Part shown: positions 1 to 8,144 of the stretch, piece after piece | Layout of the letters: each line of letters begins with the position of its first letter | Numbering within the stretch: the first letter of the stretch is position 1 | Source: Thermoleophilia bacterium | GTDB taxonomy: Bacteria; Actinomycetota; Thermoleophilia; Miltoncostaeales; Miltoncostaeaceae | DNA length: 29,599 nt | Assembly: GCA_029861485.1 (NCBI GenBank) | Contig: JAOTZF010000001.1 | Span: 1-29,599, forward strand | Reading direction: 5' to 3' | The notes under the pieces: generated by a model | Seen by the model: the letters and a program-made list of their open reading frames with translations, nothing else | Told to the model about the DNA's origin: nothing | Databases searched by the model: none | Made by a program: the position numbers and the translations under genes

Positions 1-87
1 GCCGGGCAAGATCTCTCGCGAGGCTTTGGGGCGGTCGTAGTGTGAGGGTTCGAACGTGACCCACGCCCTGGGGTCAAGACGGGCCTA

Positions 88-203
88 GTGGGATTGAAGT
101 TGAACCCACACCCCCTGTAAATCGGATTGTTCGACATTCTTCAAAGCCTGAGGCTTCCTCCAAGATAGGCCGACGCAAGGAAGTGGGACTCAAGTTGAAC
201 CCC
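88..203. repeat. 116-bp direct repeat, copy 1
   Basis: Manual alignment with 1517-1632 gives 113/116 identity, with mismatches only at 118/1547, 126/1555 and 146/1575. 60/116 GC (52%), lower than the surrounding genes. Begins with GTGGGATTGAAGTTGAACCCAC and ends with GTGGGACTCAAGTTGAACCCC. Confidence 0.97.
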
Positions 204-282
204 GTCAGGCTGGCGCGCGCCCAAATCGCCGGCTGAGGGTATGCCAGCCGGTGCACGAAATGGTTGGAGGCGTGGTCGCGGC

Positions 283-1263
283 TCACATCGTGATGAGGAC
301 CTTGCCCCGGGCGCGCCCAGCCTCGATGTAGCGGATCGCTGCGGGGACCTCCTGCAGTGGGTAGGTTCGGTCGATGACGGGTATGACCTCTCCCGCTTCG
401 ATGAGTTCCTTCACCGACTGAAGCGCCTCTTTGCTGCCCTTGAAGAAGGGCGCATGGAGCGTCTGTTTGATGAACGGCGACAACATCATCGCGCGGAGGT
501 TGCGGTCTGTCCCACCGACCCAACGCCCACCCCGTCCGCCGATTATCACGAGGGTGCCGTCGGGCGCGAGCCCGCGCCGGAGGTGCCGAAGAGACCGGTT
601 GCCGGCGGTGTCCAGGATGACGTCGTAGCGCCGAACCCCATCCGCGAATTCCTCCTTGGTGTAGTCGATGACGTGATCCGCGCCAATCGATCGCACGAGA
701 TCCATCTTCGCCGTGCTGCAAAGGCCGGTTACCTCCGCACCGAGCGTCTTGGCGATCTGAACTGCGAACGTGCCGACGCCCCCCGCCGCACCGATGACCA
801 GCACAGTCTTTCCCGGCGTGACCTCCCCGAGATCGCGGAGCGCCCGCAAGGCTGTCGGACCGGACGAGGGCACGGCGGCCGCCTGTTCGAAAGTGAGGCC
901 CTCCGGCTTCCCAACCAGGGTGTCCGCCCTGGCGCACGTGTACTCGGCAAGGGAGCCATAGCCGGTACGAAAGCAGTCTCCGAACACCTCATCACCCGGC
1001 TGGAACTCGGTCACACTCGCTCCGATCGCCTCCACCAGGCCGGCGAAATCCGTGCCGCGCACGGGAACCTTAGGTTTGCGGAACCCGAAGCCCATCAGCC
1101 GGATCACGTAGGGCACTCCGGTGGTAAGAGCCAGTTCACCGGGATCAATGGCGGCCGCGCGAACTTCTACCAACACCTCATCGGGCCCGATCGCCGGAAC
1201 ATCGATGTCTTCGATACGAAGGACCTCGGGTGGGCCGTATCGGTCTTGGACCATCGCCTGCAT
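283..1263 (-). CDS. NAD(P)-dependent alcohol dehydrogenase/quinone oxidoreductase-like protein (MDR superfamily, likely Zn-independent)
   Basis: MQAMVQDRYGPPEVL N-terminus, GTDFAG in place of the GHE Zn motif, GAAGGVG Rossmann motif, C-terminal IDRTYPL...GKV. Start moved to ATG 1263, which has GAGGTG just upstream. Confidence 0.9.
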   Translation of the reverse strand: MQAMVQDRYGPPEVLRIEDIDVPAIGPDEVLVEVRAAAIDPGELALTTGVPYVIRLMGFGFRKPKVPVRGTDFAGLVEAIGASVTEFQPGDEVFGDCFRTGYGSLAEYTCARADTLVGKPEGLTFEQAAAVPSSGPTALRALRDLGEVTPGKTVLVIGAAGGVGTFAVQIAKTLGAEVTGLCSTAKMDLVRSIGADHVIDYTKEEFADGVRRYDVILDTAGNRSLRHLRRGLAPDGTLVIIGGRGGRWVGGTDRNLRAMMLSPFIKQTLHAPFFKGSKEALQSVKELIEAGEVIPVIDRTYPLQEVPAAIRYIEAGRARGKVLITM

Positions 1264-1516
1264 GGCACCTCTTCGCGTTGAGGCGCGGACGGCGCCGGTT
1301 CTCACGGATGTCAAGCAACGCTAGTCCGTGGTCTGACGCCGAGACGTCCCCGAAAGCCCCTGAAACGGTCTGCGGCAATGCCGCGCCGCGGGACGGCGGA
1401 GGTCACTCGCTCTATGGAGTGGAGCCTGTCCGCCTCAGACCTGCGAGCCCGGGAGCTGCTGCTATCGGATATCGCTAGGCGGTTGACGCGAGACCGCACC
1501 CGGAGTGAAACGGGCC

Positions 1517-1632
1517 GTGGGATTGAAGTTGAACCCACACCCCCTGCAAATCGGCTTGTTCGACATTCTTCAAAACCTGAGGCTTCCTCCAAGATAGGCC
1601 GACGCAAGGAAGTGGGACTCAAGTTGAACCCC
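1517..1632. repeat. 116-bp direct repeat, copy 2
   Basis: 113/116 identical to 88-203 at offset 1,429. Both copies are preceded by ACGGGCC(TA). Confidence 0.97.
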
Positions 1633-1776
1633 AACGTCGTCGGCCAGACGCCGGTCTGTCTGTGTTGGTTTGGGAGCGTCGGACGACTACGAGCTGACAA
1701 CGACCTCGCGTTGTGAGGTGGCGGTGGCATGCTTCTGGGGCAGATGCCGCCTCATCGTGGACTGACCATGAGGCGT

Positions 1777-4137
1777 CTATTCGTAAGCAAGCGTGTCACG
1801 GATGGTGAGCTTGGCTGCGACCCGCGCGGGGCGGGTTGCGCCGAGCGCTCCGATGACAAGCGCAATGGGAATCCAGACGGCGATGCCGACCCACGAGAGG
1901 CTGGCCGGTAGCGACGCCGCGAGCAGACTGCTGCCGATCACCTCGCGCAACAAGAAGTCCACCACGAAGGAGAGGGCAATCCCGAGCACGCATCCGGCCG
2001 CAGCGATGGCGAGCCCTTGGAGTAGCAGCAAGCGCGTAACGGCCCAACCCGATGCGCCAAGTGTGCGGATCACCCCGACCTCACGGGTCTGTTCGATGAC
2101 TCCGAGAGTCATTGTGCCGGCCACTCCGATCGCGGCCACGATCGCCAGGATGGCTCCGACCGCCAGCAGGAGAACAACGACGAGAACGAAGAGATTGTTG
2201 ACCAAGTCCCGGCGATCAGAGTTGGTTTGGACCACGCCGACCGGAATCCCCGCGTCGCGAGCGGTCGCCTCAATGCGGTCGGCGACTGCAGCCTGATCGG
2301 CGCCCGGTGCGAGTCGCACGGCCAGGAAGTTCGTCTGCCCGACCTCGCCGAGCTCGGCCGCCAGATCCTCGGTTGGCACGTAGACGACAGGGCCGACCAG
2401 GGTGGTGGTCGAAACACCGACGATTCGCCACTCGCGGCGGGCCCCCTCGATGTCGAGTACCACCTGGTCACCGACGCCGACATCGGATTCCTCATCGGCG
2501 AAGTGAGAGTTGACCACGATTGGATGGTCGTCGGCCGCCTCGAACCACCTACCTTCAATCAGGGTTGGGTCGATTGACGGCGAGCCGGTCGGTGCCGCGA
2601 TGAGGCTGACATTCTCGTTCTCCGTCCCATCCGGACGGATGCGGAACGCCTGCTTTTCGAACCAGCCTTCGACTCCTTCGACCGCCTGATCCTTCTCCAG
2701 GACCGCAGCGGCCGTCTTGAGTTCGGTGGTTTCGGTGAGTGCGAGCTCGACGTCATATGACCAGTAGCCGGCAACGTCATCACCGAGGCGCGAGAGGGCT
2801 TGACCGGTGCTGAGAACGCCGACAAGAACAGCGCCGCTCACGGCGATGGTCAGCACGGTGAGTACAAGCCGGGAGCGGTTTCGCACGGCGTTTCGATAGG
2901 CAAGCACTGTCGGTCGGGCGAAGGGCAGGACGGCCCGTCCTCGGCGCGCGGGTGTGGTGATTCCCCGGTCGGAGATTGCCTCTTGGACTGTGACGCGCGA
3001 GGCCCGGCGGACCGAGAGGATCACCGCGGCGATGGGAAGCAGCGTGGCGATCACGATTTCAATCACGATGGTCGCCCACGGGATACCCAGCGGCTCGAGA
3101 TCGAAATTGGCCAGGTCGGCAATGAAGCCGGCGAGGAACCGACCGGTCAGCACTGAGAGCGGAATCGCCACGATGAGGGCGCCCAGGGATAAGAGCAGCA
3201 CGTAGGCGAGGTATTGAGTGGTCAGCTGTCCCGATGTGCCGCCGATTGCCTTCATCACTCCGACCTGGCGTCGCTGTTGCGCCAAAAGCGCGGACACCGT
3301 GTTGATCACCAGGGCGACGGCAATCACGAGCGCAAGCAGCGACAGCAGCCGCATGATGGAGACGACGGATGCTATGGCGTTGTTGGCCCGGTGCTCGCTC
3401 GGCTCTTGAATGGCGCTCGACTCGATAGCAACGTTGGCCGGTTCGAGCACGCCATCGCGAACCGCGGTGGTCATCCCGATCGCCTGATTGCGATCCAACG
3501 GATCATCGGAGGCTCGGATGTAGAGCGAGTTGAGGAGTCTCGAGCCTGTGAGCTTGGCCATCGTCGCCATCGACAGATAGGCGCGTGCCGGACCACCGAG
3601 TGTGGGTGTGACTTCGTAGACGTCAAAGGCGGTCCCGTTGACTGGTAGATCGACCGGCGTCTTGCCGGGCAGGTTGATTGAGACCGTGTCGCCGACCCCT
3701 GCGCCCAGTTCATCGACCGACGACCGTTCCACCACGATTGCGTCGTTTGTCGGGGGCCACGTGCCGGTAGCGGGCTCAATTTTCGCAACCCGGTTCTCCG
3801 CGAAGTCGTTCATCGCGACGAGCTCCACGTTGACCGAGTCGCCCTTTGCATTGGTGACGCGCGTTTCGAGAATGCGCCGCCCCTCGACCTCGCTGACCGT
3901 CGGGTGGGCCGCGACGTCGTCCACCAGTTCGCTCGAGAATGGCTCGGTTCGCAGCATCGCCGAGGGTGGGTTGGCACCCAGGAAGCTCGACTCGAACGAG
4001 GTCCCAATCGTGGCGCCAGCCAAGTACATGGCGCCAACCGCGAGCATTCCAACCGCGAGCGAAGCAATCGCCAAGATCGAGCGTGACTTGTTGAATACGA
4101 GGTCCGAGCGGACCTTGCGCCAGCGCGAGCCCATCAC
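1777..4137 (-). CDS. ABC transporter permease, FtsX/MacB-like (two FtsX-type domains)
   Basis: 786 aa, two TM bundles each followed by Q(RR/TR)xVGVxxxxG(G/A) signatures, large extracytoplasmic domains. 4-bp overlap with the upstream ATPase. Confidence 0.9.
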   Translation of the reverse strand: MMGSRWRKVRSDLVFNKSRSILAIASLAVGMLAVGAMYLAGATIGTSFESSFLGANPPSAMLRTEPFSSELVDDVAAHPTVSEVEGRRILETRVTNAKGDSVNVELVAMNDFAENRVAKIEPATGTWPPTNDAIVVERSSVDELGAGVGDTVSINLPGKTPVDLPVNGTAFDVYEVTPTLGGPARAYLSMATMAKLTGSRLLNSLYIRASDDPLDRNQAIGMTTAVRDGVLEPANVAIESSAIQEPSEHRANNAIASVVSIMRLLSLLALVIAVALVINTVSALLAQQRRQVGVMKAIGGTSGQLTTQYLAYVLLLSLGALIVAIPLSVLTGRFLAGFIADLANFDLEPLGIPWATIVIEIVIATLLPIAAVILSVRRASRVTVQEAISDRGITTPARRGRAVLPFARPTVLAYRNAVRNRSRLVLTVLTIAVSGAVLVGVLSTGQALSRLGDDVAGYWSYDVELALTETTELKTAAAVLEKDQAVEGVEGWFEKQAFRIRPDGTENENVSLIAAPTGSPSIDPTLIEGRWFEAADDHPIVVNSHFADEESDVGVGDQVVLDIEGARREWRIVGVSTTTLVGPVVYVPTEDLAAELGEVGQTNFLAVRLAPGADQAAVADRIEATARDAGIPVGVVQTNSDRRDLVNNLFVLVVVLLLAVGAILAIVAAIGVAGTMTLGVIEQTREVGVIRTLGASGWAVTRLLLLQGLAIAAAGCVLGIALSFVVDFLLREVIGSSLLAASLPASLSWVGIAVWIPIALVIGALGATRPARVAAKLTIRDTLAYE

Positions 4138-4877
4138 GCCACCCTCGCGCGTTCTGAGACAGCACCGTCTTTGACTTCGACGATCCGACGGGTGCGCTCG
4201 GCCAGCTCCCGGTCGTGTGTGACCATGAGGATGGTCCGATCGCTCTCGACCAGCTCATCGAAGAGATCCATCATCGTGGACGCAGACTCCGAATCGAGGT
4301 TTCCCGTCGGCTCGTCGCCCAGGATGATCGGAGGGTCGTTGGAGAGGGCGCGGGCGATCGCCGCGCGCTGTTGTTGACCGCCTGACACCTCAGAGGGCAA
4401 CTTCTCCGCCTGGTCTGCGAGTCCGACCCGATCCAGAAGCTCGCGCGCAAACTCAGGCCGCTGCCGCCGAGGGTGGACCCCACAGAAGTCCATCGGAAGC
4501 ATCACGTTCTCGGCCAGGCTCAGCGTGGGAAGCAACTGGAAGAACTGAAAGACGACACCGACGTTCTTGCCGCGCCACCGCGCGGTCTCGTTTTCGTTGA
4601 GCGCCGATACCTCGACGCCGTCCACGACGACCCGGCCCTCGGTGGGCCGGTCAATGCCTGCCATCAAGTTGAGTAGTGTCGATTTACCCGAGCCAGAGGG
4701 CCCGACCACTCCAACGAACTCGCCAGCGCCGACCAACAGATCCGCGCTCTTTAGCGCGGTGAAGCTGATGCCACCGGTCGTATAGGTCTTCGATACCCCG
4801 TCAAATCTGATCAGCCCGGAGGTGTCGTCGTCGTTGGATGGCGAAGAATCGTCCTGAGAATGTCGTCCAAACCGCAC
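4134..4877 (-). CDS. ABC transporter ATP-binding protein (LolD/MacB-like)
   Basis: Walker A GPSGSGKS, Q-loop VFQ, signature VSGGQQQR, Walker B ILGDEPTGNLD, H-loop VTHD. Start placed at GTG 4877, 8 nt after GGAGG. Confidence 0.92.
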   Translation of the reverse strand: MRFGRHSQDDSSPSNDDDTSGLIRFDGVSKTYTTGGISFTALKSADLLVGAGEFVGVVGPSGSGKSTLLNLMAGIDRPTEGRVVVDGVEVSALNENETARWRGKNVGVVFQFFQLLPTLSLAENVMLPMDFCGVHPRRQRPEFARELLDRVGLADQAEKLPSEVSGGQQQRAAIARALSNDPPIILGDEPTGNLDSESASTMMDLFDELVESDRTILMVTHDRELAERTRRIVEVKDGAVSERARVA

Positions 4878-5583
4878 CGTCTGCACCTCCGTTGTGGTCT
4901 CCCGAAGGCTCTTCGGGGATCGCCGCGTGGCACAGGATGCGTCGGTCCCCCAGGGCACGCATCCGTGGCAATCCACATGCAGTTCGGGCGCTACTGGAGC
5001 GGCCGGACCGGGTGGCAGGCCCGGCCGTGAGCGAGAAGATGGCGTTTGGCGCCACTGAAACGCCTGGAACGCGCCACATTAGGGCGAGCAGCGATGCCGA
5101 GAAGCGAGCCAAGAAACCCCTGCATGACCATCATCCGGACTCCGTAGTTATCCGCATGCGGGAATCCGCCCGTGCGTAGCGCGACAACAAGGACTCACGA
5201 GTCCAAGGCCAGGCTGCAGCCAGCCAGGGTTCGGTTTTCACTGGACTACCGGCACGGGCCTGTATGCACCCGAGCTCACTGACCCTCGCCGCCGGACGAC
5301 CGACAAGGTCGGCCTCACGCCTTCGGCGGCGGGTCGATCTACGGGTTAGCTAGCGCTCCAGTCGGTAGTCGTCGGTGCAACGGGGTCAGCGCGAGGCCGA
5401 GACGCCAAGTAATGGTGGCGCAACTCGTCATCCTGGTCGGCCTGGATGTTGCGGAGATCTTCCGCGTGTAGTCAGCAAGAGTCCGGAGCGGGCCGGGTTC
5501 GAAAGCGACTCATTTCTTCGTGCTCGGCCGCAGCGATACGAAGACACCGCGACCAGGGGAAAGCCCCGTTGTCCACAGGACGT

Positions 5584-5614
5584 ACGGGCTTAGTGGGAGT
5601 GAGGTCGAACCAAA
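5584..5614. repeat. Degenerate single copy of the repeat-boundary site
   Basis: ACGGGCTTAGTGGGAGTGAGGTCGAACC (5584-5611) matches ACGGGCCTAGTGGGATTGAAGTTGAACC (79-106) at 24/28, same orientation. The rest of the 116-bp unit is absent here. Confidence 0.7.
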
Positions 5615-5798
5615 CCCGTTATCTCGCGATGGCGAGGACGGGCAAGCGCGGACTCTCGCCATTGCCGGGAGTCGCCCGTTGTTATCGGGGTTTTCCCCGG
5701 ATGCCTCGTGCCGCGAACGACCCCGATGATCTGCGCTCGAACGCGCGTTACACACGCCCGGTATTGGCGCGCGGCGAGTTCCGGGAGGGGTACGAAAG

Positions 5799-6359
5799 AT
5801 GGAAGGCAAACCGACCCCAGACGACCCGTCGGACAACGAGGCTGACGCCAGCGCGAACCGTCGCTGGCCGACATGGAGACGGCTCCTGTTCATCGTCGGG
5901 GCCATCGTGGTCGGGTTGCTCGTCCTCATCCAGGCGGTGCCCTACGGACGCGATCACACCAATCCCCCAGTGACGGCCACGACAACCTGGGACAGCCCGC
6001 AGACCCAGTCACTCTTTGCGACAGCGTGTGGCGACTGCCATTCCAACGAGACCGAGTGGCCGTGGTACTCCAACATCGCGCCGGTCTCCTGGCTGACCGA
6101 AAAAGACGTCAAGGACGGTCGCGAGGAGCTGAACACCTCGGAGGCGCAGTCCGAGGTTGAAGTCGAGGAGATGGTTGAGGTGATCCGCGACGGGAGTATG
6201 CCGCCGTGGTTCTACACCATTCCCCACCCCGACGCCGACCTCTCTTCTCGAGAGAAAGAGGCCCTCATCACGGGGCTTGAGGCCACCTTCCTCGGTAGGG
6301 AGACCACTGACCCACGAGGTGAGGAGGCGGAGTCTGAGGACGAGCAGGACGAATCCTGA
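5799..6359 (+). CDS. Membrane-anchored c-type heme-binding protein (Haem_bd-like)
   Basis: GGAGGGG RBS; N-terminal TM helix; CGDCH (CxxCH) followed by SNETEWPWYSNIAPVSWL; distal MPP motif. Confidence 0.85.
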   Translation: MEGKPTPDDPSDNEADASANRRWPTWRRLLFIVGAIVVGLLVLIQAVPYGRDHTNPPVTATTTWDSPQTQSLFATACGDCHSNETEWPWYSNIAPVSWLTEKDVKDGREELNTSEAQSEVEVEEMVEVIRDGSMPPWFYTIPHPDADLSSREKEALITGLEATFLGRETTDPRGEEAESEDEQDES

Positions 6360-6462
6360 GCATCCGGTCCAGCGAGTACTCCTCGTGTGACCCGTTCGAG
6401 CAGACCTAGCTGAACCGGCCTGGGGGTGATGGAGGCTTCTGACCGCTGAGAGGATGGAAGCC

Positions 6463-6780
6463 ATGAGCAAGAGGTATCCCCCGGAGATGAAGGAGCGCGC
6501 CTGTCGCCTGGTGGCCGACTGGCGACGTGAGCGACAACGATCAAACGGCGGCTTCAACGAGGTCGCGGCGCAGCTTGATGTCCACCCCGAGTCTCTACGC
6601 GGCTGGTTTCGCCAGTGGCAGATCGACGCCGGTGAGCAACCGGGCATCACGACGGAGGAGCAGAAGCGGATCACCGAGCTGGAGAGGGAGGTCCGAGAAC
6701 TCCGACGAGCCAACGAGATCCTCCGGTCTGCCTCGGCTTTTTTCGCGGCGGAGCTCGACCGCCCACGAAACTCGTCGTGA
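6463..6780 (+). CDS. IS3-family transposase OrfA (HTH)
   Basis: SKRYPPEMKERA...VAAQLDVHPESLRGW...ELRRANEILRSASAFFAAELDR, typical IS3 OrfA. Alternative ATG at 6454. Confidence 0.92.
   Translation: MSKRYPPEMKERACRLVADWRRERQRSNGGFNEVAAQLDVHPESLRGWFRQWQIDAGEQPGITTEEQKRITELEREVRELRRANEILRSASAFFAAELDRPRNSS
6738..6744 (+). promoter_or_regulatory. Putative -1 ribosomal frameshift site (T TTT TTC) joining OrfA and OrfB
   Basis: GCTTTTTTCGCG near the end of orfA, the usual position in IS3-family elements. Confidence 0.65.
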
Positions 6781-7685
6781 GCTACATCGACCAGCACAAG
6801 GACCAGTTCGGGGTCGAGCCCATCTGCGGCGCTTTGCAGGTGGTCTCATCGACCTACTACGCCGCCCGCTCGCGTCCGCCCTCTGCGCGCCAGCGCGAGG
6901 ATCAACGACTCAGTGCTGAGGTGATGCGCGTGTTCGAGAGCAACTACCGGGTGTACGGCAGGCGCAAGATCTGGGCTCAGCTCAACCGCGAAGGCATCCC
7001 GGTCGGGCGCGACCGGGTGGAGCGCCTGATGAAGCAGGCAGGCATCGCGGGAGCAGTCCGAGGAAAGAGAGTCAGAACGACCCGTCCGGACGAGCGCGCT
7101 CCACGTGCGCCTGATCTGGTCGATCGCGATTGGGCGGTATCTGCGCCCAATCGCGTCTGGGTCTCGGACTTCACGTACGTGGCCACCTGGTCGGGCATGG
7201 CGTATGTGGCGTTCGTGATCGATGTCTACTCACGACGGATCGTGGGGTGGCGGGTCGCCTCATCGATGCGCACCGCACTCGTGCTCGATGCGCTCGAGCA
7301 GGCAATCTGGGCGCGTGATGAGCGCCTCGAGGGCCTGATCGTTCACACCGACGCCGGCAGTCAATTCACGGCCATTCGTTTCACCGAGCGCCTGGCTGAG
7401 GTCGGTGCGGCACCATCGGTGGGATCGGTCGGCGATCCGATCGACAACGCGATCGCCGAATCGACCATCGGGCTCTACAAGAGCGAGCTGATCCGACGGC
7501 GCGGGCCCTGGCGCACCCTCGATGAGCTGGAGTTCGCCACCTTCGAGTACGTCGACTGGTTCAACCATCGTCGCCTGCACGGCGAGATCCGCCAGCGACC
7601 ACCTGCCGAGGTCGAAGACCTCTACTACCGTCAACGACCCGCCCCGATGGAGGGGCTCAACTCAGAAGAAATCGGTCTCCACTAA
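6777..7685 (+). CDS. IS3-family transposase OrfB (DDE integrase core)
   Basis: WVSDFTYV, HTDAGSQF, DNAIAES...KSE DDE triad; YVDWFNHRRLH C-terminus. Stop lies within the IRR. Confidence 0.95.
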   Translation: MSYIDQHKDQFGVEPICGALQVVSSTYYAARSRPPSARQREDQRLSAEVMRVFESNYRVYGRRKIWAQLNREGIPVGRDRVERLMKQAGIAGAVRGKRVRTTRPDERAPRAPDLVDRDWAVSAPNRVWVSDFTYVATWSGMAYVAFVIDVYSRRIVGWRVASSMRTALVLDALEQAIWARDERLEGLIVHTDAGSQFTAIRFTERLAEVGAAPSVGSVGDPIDNAIAESTIGLYKSELIRRRGPWRTLDELEFATFEYVDWFNHRRLHGEIRQRPPAEVEDLYYRQRPAPMEGLNSEEIGLH

Positions 7686-8041
7686 GCCCAGGCCGGTTCA
7701 TTTTGCTGGAGGACCCCTCAACCGTGATCCAAACGGGGCCGACCGGCAGATGGACTCCACCTCAACGCCACCCCCTCTGTCAATCACTGGTGGACCTGAC
7801 CCCCTCTCACGGACACCTGCTGACCGGAGAGAACCCGGCACGAAAGGGGCCCCCACGGCCCACGACTGCAACGCTGCTGATCTCGATGCCGTGATCGCCG
7901 CGCGACTGACGGGTGCGCCATCGGCTCGACGGCGAGTGGTTGATCGAACACGATCGCGGCTGTCCTGGCCCTGTCGAACACGCAGCGACAGCCGGGCCAC
8001 AGAGCCGAGGCCGCCTTTGCCACGCGTCGCGGAGGCAACCA

Positions 8042-8067
8042 AAGACCCCGTCTGAACGGCGTTCTCG
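8042..8067 (-). terminator. Possible imperfect terminator hairpin downstream of tRNA-Pro
   Basis: Minus strand GAGAACGCCGT-TCAG-ACGGGGTCTTT: 4-bp perfect core, mismatched extension, short U run. Confidence 0.3.
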
Positions 8068-8070
8068 TAG

Positions 8071-8144
8071 TCGGGGCGGCAGGATTTGAACCTGCGACCT
8101 TCCGGCCCCCAGCCGGATGCGCTACCAGGCTGCGCCACGCCCCG
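8071..8144 (-). tRNA. tRNA-Pro(GGG), CCA not encoded
   Basis: CGGGGCG/CGCCCCG acceptor stem, GCGC D-stem, TCCGG-CTGGGGG-CCGGA anticodon arm, GCAGG-TTCAAAT-CCTGC T-arm, discriminator A followed by CTA. Confidence 0.97.

Follow-up and report, generated by a model that had tools for sequence, protein, structure and literature searches.

A conserved tRNA-end-like site at the joints of small cargo modules in Miltoncostaeaceae

The window, i.e., the whole stretch of 29,599 nt that was analysed, is the entire contig of a MAG that is 67% complete. Between its joints, the left part of the window harbours genes for an alcohol dehydrogenase, for the two proteins of an ABC transporter and for a haem-binding protein, followed by an insertion sequence and a tRNA gene (Table 1). 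At about 8 kb the GC content rises from ~0.63-0.65 to 0.67-0.73 (8071-29599) and the cumulative GC skew turns down; the first-pass annotation had remarked that the genes to the right of this position are almost all located on the minus strand.

Table 1. Features of the window and positions of the small ORF of a recurrent module at other loci.
Feature	Position	Strand	Description
Short-form module tail	47-79		degenerate inverted site copy (GGGTTCGAAC...CCCAC); can pair with site A to form an imperfect hairpin
Site A	80-109	-	tRNA-3'-half look-alike; aligns to the 3' part of tRNA-Pro(TGG) with a 5-nt gap
Interior of 95-nt cargo-less unit X	110-182		conserved head sequence after site A
Site B	183-203	-	second T-arm-like copy, without the conserved acceptor-like strand
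Module 1	204-1509	-	zinc-type alcohol dehydrogenase gene (283-1314), upstream region and degenerate tail
Site A'	1510-1538	-	copy of site A minus 2 nt of the acceptor-like strand
Site B'	1612-1632	-	copy of site B
Module 2	1633-5479	-	ABC transporter: FtsX/MacB permease (1777-4137) and ATPase (4134-4976)
Module 2 long-form tail	5480-5583		GGGTTCGAAAG..., ACCAGGGGAAA, GTTGTCCACAGG; GTTGTCCACAGG includes a DnaA-box-like 9-mer
Site C	5584-5611	-	diverged site; loop TTCGACCTCACT, TAAGCCC, G
Module 3	5612-6410	+	Haem_bd-domain gene (5799-6359); tail interrupted by IS3
IS3-family insertion sequence	6411-7700	+	outside the system; multi-copy repeat joining the contig
tRNA-Pro(GGG)	8070-8144	-	3' end toward the array, co-oriented with the sites; linkage through IS3 only
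87-120-aa ORF, L087	7858-8121
87-120-aa ORF, L091	8502-8765
87-120-aa ORF, L089	10239-10601
87-120-aa ORF, L092	8049-8393
87-120-aa ORF, L084	6819-7259
87-120-aa ORF, L090	13361-13624

Three of the sites had been read in the first-pass annotation, on the minus strand, as mimics of a tRNA T-arm and acceptor strand with five additional nucleotides in the loop. The sequence of the window agrees with this reading for site A (GTGGG, the 12-nt loop TTCAACTTCAAT, CCCAC, TAGGCCC and G), site B (GGGG, TTCAACTTGAGT and CCCAC) and site C (GG, TTCGACCTCACT, CCCAC, TAAGCCC and G). Deletion of the five nucleotides does yield T-loop-like heptamers, and the 7-nt acceptor-like strand is, together with the following G, indeed present 3' of sites A and C and 90% conserved across the site family. 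A degenerate pattern built from these three sites, GTGGGANTNARGTYGAACC, matches the window exactly at five positions (88, 183, 1517, 1612 and 5593) at a chance expectation of 0.21, and five matches were reached in none of 100 shuffles. Two of the copies, sites A' and B', had not been listed before; the matches at 1517 and 1612 belong to 1517-1632, which directly repeats the 116 nt of 88-203 with 97% identity. ARAGORN identified the tRNA-Pro as the only tRNA of the window and recognised no cloverleaf at the sites, and a search against Rfam with E-values up to 1 gave no match at these positions.

Alignment of all copies revealed that the joint in this genus is a composite. It starts with the site in degenerate, inverted form (GGGTTCGAAC...CCCAC). 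Next comes variable sequence, about 25 nt long in the short form and about 90 nt long in the long form, the latter including ACCAGGGGAAA and GTTRTCCACAGG. The joint ends with the site, after which there is often a conserved 95-nt unit closing with a second, weaker site. In long-form tails (window 5567-5578 as well as L052, L045, L224, L230 and L234), either TTATCCACA or TTGTCCACA is located 4-5 nt from the joint. We take TTATCCACA to be the DnaA-box consensus and TTGTCCACA to be its high-GC actinobacterial variant.

The connection of the array to the tRNA-Pro gene of the window runs through the IS3-family element, which has terminal inverted repeats of 24 nt and an rve transposase, with an ALIL frameshift pseudoknot at 6735-6848. 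This element is covered at ~4x the depth of its flanks, and on contigs from two sequencing runs its right end is followed first by the sequence expected to continue the tail of the haem module and next by a site. Because of this depth and of the alternative joins in the two runs, the contig path from the array through IS3 to tRNA-Pro may be an assembly join. In population contigs the element is flanked by an AGC duplication, and a second IS3 copy directly follows a site core (joint of 112 to 6410). The 3' end of the tRNA-Pro(GGG) gene, at 8067-8070, is a variable junction: across four sediment runs, its left flank takes at least three different forms. A contig of a congener (G001:C49) is homologous to the window from 8069 rightwards only. 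Population contigs also display a 30-nt 3' fragment of the tRNA-Pro that runs on into foreign sequence (loose ends at 8098-8100). Some parts of the window are without cover in runs X2-X4.

The core of the site was found in 19 of 111 genomes of the Miltoncostaeaceae (Thermoleophilia), which belong to 8 of the 25 genera, with no match in the control, and additionally on 19 metagenome contigs. There are 1-13 copies per genome which are clustered in arrays; the genome of the window has 10 matches on four contigs, the window contig and three others, and G102 harbours several site loci. The family alignment shows a conserved block of ~37 nt within variable flanks, and 43 distinct members align without gaps. 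The first-pass annotation had proposed to survey related genomes for the T-loop with five additional nucleotides, and the 12-nt loop proved to be kept in 53 of 54 distinct copies (13 nt in the remaining one). As the insertion is identical in these 53 copies across genera, it appears to have arisen once and to have been inherited, and the earlier suggestion that each recombination event leaves a 5-nt footprint does not hold. The stem reads in the window as had been described, but is weaker outside the genus: across the 43 copies, 76% of the cells pair, and the outer pair is formed in 10. One stem pair covaries (UA in 23, CG in 9 and UG in 7 copies). Exact 19-mer matches in other phyla, which were considered as relatives of the site, fall within conserved coding sequence and are unrelated to it; their opposite strand reads FNFNPA, which we assume to be a MraY/WecA-type motif. 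A full long-form site of this genus is present on a 5.8-kb contig binned as Gemmatimonadota (L137/L228, JAOTWJ010000178.1 = Ga0224512_10013456), which suggests either mis-binning or transfer. At a further locus (L086, G068:C55, 9680-10510) a variant of the core, GGGATTCAAGTTGAACC, forms inverted doublets ~45 nt apart with long perfect hairpins, in contrast to the direct arrangement at other loci.

Short repeats of this kind could belong to a REP/REPIN- or MITE-like non-autonomous element mobilized into intergenic DNA by a transposase that targets T-arm-like hairpins, to which the tRNA likeness would be due, and any shuffling of the sequences in between would then be a by-product of homologous recombination between copies. 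In line with such a repeat, copies are found singly, as direct doublets and, in G068, as inverted doublets, and the hairpin followed by 8 nt to the junction is similar to the right-end geometry of IS200/IS605 elements (IS608). However, the Y1 transposase (PF01797) is absent from genus g1 (G000 and G001) and from all 19 genomes of the site-bearing genus g25, the copies are few (1-13 per genome) and clustered rather than dispersed, and their orientation follows that of the neighbouring tRNA. We therefore regard this explanation as unlikely.

The combination of T-arm and acceptor strand displayed by the site is absent from all 27 tRNAs of the window's genome, among which tRNA-Leu(CAA) has only the stem in common with it. 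By pattern search, no tRNA ending in CCCRC-YAGGCCC-R was found in five genomes, two of which are 94-100% complete. Since these five genomes hold no matching tRNA, the sites are not displaced fragments of a resident tRNA, as the first-pass annotation had considered. Pattern searches for a tRNA with the acceptor pair GGGCYTA/TARGCCC or with a tRNA-Ile-like start gave no candidate either, and every match to CCCRC-CAGGCCC-R was coding. The site is likewise unlike the tRNAs beside which it is found, i.e., tRNA-Pro(GGG), tRNA-Ser, tRNA-Arg and tRNA-Met.

The arrays are nonetheless arranged with respect to tRNA genes. At L083, L087, L089, L090, L091 and L092 they are located 3' of intact tRNA-Ser or tRNA-Arg/Met genes and on the same strand, and the tRNA is tRNA-Ser(TGA) in G098, G030 and G099, tRNA-Ser(GGA) in G021, and tRNA-Arg and tRNA-Met in G102. 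On the metagenome contig L230, co-oriented arrays lie beside both members of a divergent tRNA-Ser pair. The geometry of the window is alike, with the sites on the 3' side of the tRNA-Pro and in the same orientation; exceptions with regard to orientation are L086, which is mixed, and L220, which is opposite. A tRNA is present in 7 of 10 loci of 20 kb. The junctions also involve tRNA ends. The tail of a recurrent small-ORF module adjoins tRNA-Ser(tga) in L091 and fragments of tRNA-Ser in both L089 and L084; in L087 and L092 it adjoins the site. In L224 and L230, the long-form tail meets the end of a real tRNA-Ser at the very base where it elsewhere meets the site. When tails joined to a tRNA-Ser end, to a tRNA-Ser fragment and to a site are compared, all three can be aligned, nucleotide by nucleotide, as far as the discriminator position.

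With regard to sequence, the site of this genus can be aligned to the last 40 nt of tRNA-Pro(TGG), with a 5-nt gap in the T-arm and several changes. The match includes the 9-mer GCAGGGGGT, an uninterrupted run in the anticodon stem and variable loop, and it continues over the first ~15 nt of the interior of unit X into the variable loop and anticodon stem. The alignment score is 29-33 compared to 21-23 +/- 3 for shuffles, corresponding to a z of about 2.6-3.8 above the best shuffle scores, which is of moderate significance as single shuffles reach the observed score. In the form of the site found in other genera, 15 of 17 positions agree with the T-arm of tRNA-Pro(GGG) by manual count when the five nucleotides are removed. 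Unit X and site A were also considered as a complete pseudo-tRNA, which was dismissed because the tRNA likeness is limited to the 3' 40 nt.

A classical tandem island array exists in the same genus: on G001:C30 (L174, 8236-15059) a tRNA-Met(CAT) is accompanied by three exact or near-exact copies of its 3' 45 nt at 13.4, 12.1 and 8.2 kb, which are 1.4-3.9 kb apart and each located beside a conserved small hairpin. Based on the arrays 3' of tRNAs, the shared junctions, the tRNA-Pro match and this tRNA-Met array, the likeness of the site to a tRNA end is not due to chance. A coincidental resemblance had been envisaged in the first-pass annotation for a lineage without a tRNA of this T-arm/acceptor combination; such a tRNA is indeed absent from the five genomes searched, yet the placement, the junctions and the tRNA-Pro match argue otherwise. 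Thus, in position, orientation and sequence the sites are tRNA-3'-end-like, the best match being tRNA-Pro with the 5-nt gap.

The sites might also be decayed, functionless fragments of a tRNA (tRNA-Pro or tRNA-Ile) from a donor lineage that arrived with islands, so that their conservation would reflect recent common descent. The likeness to tRNA-Pro and the classical tRNA fragments within the same genus would fit, and TAGGCCC and CAGGCCC are acceptor strands of tRNA-Ile in other bacteria. We consider this distinctly unlikely, as the deviant form with the 12-nt loop is kept in at least eight genera and in metagenomes, whereas flanks and modules have diverged to 75%, which rather argues for copying or selection. 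The covariation at one stem pair similarly speaks against decay.

The DNA between the joints is modular. Apart from the cargo of the window, the arrays carry genes for a cd1 nitrite reductase, a GGDEF-EAL protein, glyoxalase, copper oxidases, methyltransferases, cupins, MarR, SRPBCC and DUF899 proteins; in every array the genes occur on both strands relative to the site, and they possess upstream regions of their own. Three parts of the window (1511-3801, 3942-5573 and 5584-6408) are 97-98% identical to sequences on three contigs of the congener G001, where their left neighbours differ. Module 2 corresponds at this identity to G001:C243, to which homology begins at position 1511 of the window, and to G001:C167, and site C with the haem-binding module recurs in G001:C105 next to another left neighbour. 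Between G000 and G001, the homology breakpoints coincide with the acceptor-side edge of the site. Across genera, modules 250-830 nt long reappear with 75-93% identity in changed order and orientation, and in four sediment runs several different sequences are found to the left of positions 76-81 and to the right of positions 113-117 around site A. A recurrent module of ~390 nt consists of an ORF of 87-120 aa without Pfam match followed by a GC-rich hairpin; it recurs in three genera and five or more genomes, with 74-88% identity. Comparison of the neighbouring genes of the arrays revealed no conservation other than shared cargo (methyltransferase, cupin and the 87-aa ORF). A gene flanking L091 was discarded as a marker of an empty site, being itself a mobile module. 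The sites hence act as joints of cassettes, as had been proposed: they delimit cargo modules, the tails of which abut the site or the 3' end of tRNA-Ser at the same nucleotide. Recombination at the T-loop, which had been put forward as well, does not agree with these data, as the module junctions are located at the acceptor-side edge of the site instead.

No integrase was found in or beside the arrays in any that we examined. The only integrase near a site, at L221, belongs to a family (C4/L221) that occurs at many tRNAs; it was rejected as the enzyme of the site since it is a general tRNA-targeting family and never located within 1.5 kb of a site. Tandem genes for XerC/XerD-like tyrosine recombinases are present in every genome of the family examined (G000:C99 2460-4054, G001:C102, G098:C1 at 1.911 Mb and others) and lie at contig ends in both MAGs of the genus. 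They were similarly rejected, being present in all genomes and not near the sites, and are probably housekeeping genes. The ubiquity of this pair would nevertheless allow the site to be read as the chromosomal dif sequence, alongside which Xer-exploiting modules are stacked; two 8-nt arms with a 6-nt spacer, the frequently single copy per genome and the peak of the cumulative GC skew at about 7 kb of the window might be taken in its favour. However, on three long contigs (G098, G092 and G099) the sites are located 370-600 kb from dnaA and not opposite to it, which refutes this reading if the replichores are roughly equal, and G102 has multiple loci. Furthermore, the core as read does not display the dif-type motif ATAA..TTATG. 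A role as dif is thus extremely improbable.

More features are shared with attC sites of integrons. The site and the inverted arm 40-110 nt away could fold as single-stranded hairpins, and the arrays would then represent a CALIN array. The outer boxes of the imperfect hairpin are paired, and it also has an inner stem, a spacer that does not pair, bulged bases and a centre that varies from 60 to 130 nt. GTTGAAC matches GTTRRRY, and the spacing is that of cassettes. Glyoxalase, cupin, MarR, SRPBCC and DUF899 genes, as present in the arrays, are also typical cargo of cassettes. Nevertheless, the integron integrase model TIGR02249 scored at best 56 bits, compared to a cut-off of 265, in seven genomes including ones that are 94-100% complete, and a literature search for integrons in Thermoleophilia returned nothing relevant. 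The junctions map to the apical, acceptor-like side and not to the G|TT of the outer box, and the genes occur in both orientations with their own upstream regions. In addition, the inverted arm, which has one extra base relative to its partner, is not evident outside genus g1, and the fold energies are no better than those of shuffles (z of -0.5 to -1.7). We therefore consider attC an improbable identity for the site.

The explanation we favour, and believe to have about an even chance of being correct, is that the site is an element-borne attachment site derived from a tRNA 3' half and carried by integrase-less cargo modules which pile up at tRNA genes. Accordingly named in tRNA sense, such a module would consist of tail, cargo, head and site, with no integrase aboard. 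The site would form the core of an attachment-type recombination joint, and would go back to a tRNA gene, namely to its 3' half. The closest candidate is tRNA-Pro (variable loop, T-arm, 3' strand of the acceptor and discriminator), although the site would by now copy none of the resident tRNAs. The loop of 12 nt (7 + 5) would have had a single origin and been inherited family-wide. Modules would be inserted or exchanged precisely where a tRNA gene, or an earlier site, ends on its 3' side, and the arrays would therefore grow on the 3' side of the tRNA with all sites co-oriented with it. The recombinase might be supplied in trans, most likely by one of the tRNA-targeting tyrosine integrases which are common in these genomes; such an enzyme would cross over just past the tRNA, with the core-binding site of the element imitating the tRNA end. 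We propose that the site mimics a tRNA end because a recombinase supplied in trans would read the same sequence in both partners. We thus infer a site-specific mechanism of recombination, ancestry in tRNA-Pro and a trans-acting integrase. Of the two origins offered in the first-pass annotation, a tRNA-derived site reused as a cassette joint or the footprint of an integrase, the tRNA-end ancestry and the role as a joint are retained, while the footprint per event and the fragment of a resident tRNA are abandoned.

Several observations speak against an attachment site of this kind. No integrase accompanies any array examined, and as the site is unlike the adjoining tRNA (Ser, Arg or Met), classical restoration of the tRNA cannot account for it. 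The similarity to tRNA-Pro is moderate (see above), 3 of the 10 loci of 20 kb lack a tRNA, the linkage to tRNA-Pro in the window depends on a repeat, and homologous recombination between conserved sites could also give rise to the breakpoints. Alternatively, the modules might constitute a cassette system of its own that lands on tRNA 3' ends, in which integrase-less modules with a terminal tRNA-end mimic are moved by a trans-acting recombinase that cuts at the mature tRNA end. Compared to an integron, the tRNA gene would take the role of attI and the tRNA-end mimic that of attC. Such a system is conceivable, if on balance rather unlikely.

Among known systems, REP/REPIN and IS200/IS605 palindrome elements resemble the sites as short intergenic hairpin repeats which sometimes form inverted doublets; they differ from the low-copy, clustered arrays described here, in which the site-richest genera lack a Y1 transposase. 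Similar to attC and CALIN arrays, structured, imperfectly palindromic joints of variable length separate units of the size of single genes, the cargo families are similar, and the arrays are integrase-less. In contrast to integrons, the family lacks IntI, the crossover is off the outer box, the genes have no orientation bias, the sequence is conserved rather than the structure, and the arrays are bound to tRNA genes. tRNA-linked islands are generally attributed to integrases which restore the tRNA by using an exact copy of its 3' part, and integrase-less elements of the CIME type as well as pSAM2, which resides at tRNA-Pro, belong to the same class with partial-tRNA attachment sites. The closest parallels are tandem tRNA-targeting integrative elements with partial-tRNA attachment repeats such as those in the tycheposon islands of Prochlorococcus (bioRxiv 10.1101/2020.12.28.424599). 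As in these elements, the repeats are tRNA-3'-like and located 3' of a tRNA gene in the same orientation, successive units are pushed outward, many units have no integrase, and the content varies among close relatives. Unlike there, the repeat copies neither the adjacent tRNA nor any other tRNA of the lineage, one deviant form is found across genera beside tRNA-Ser, tRNA-Arg, tRNA-Met and perhaps tRNA-Pro, the junctions are at the very 3' edge of the tRNA, and the arrays are without integrase. If the site is merely a decaying fragment, the finding is an ordinary one. If a recombinase does recognise it as a tRNA-end mimic, the site illustrates how several tRNA landing sites can draw on one pool of cargo genes, and its ~37 nt would provide a sequence handle on the flexible gene pools of uncultured sediment Actinomycetota. 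New with respect to the known theme of tRNA-linked islands is that a single deviant look-alike, conserved across genera beside different tRNAs, delimits small integrase-less modules which are shuffled between genomes.
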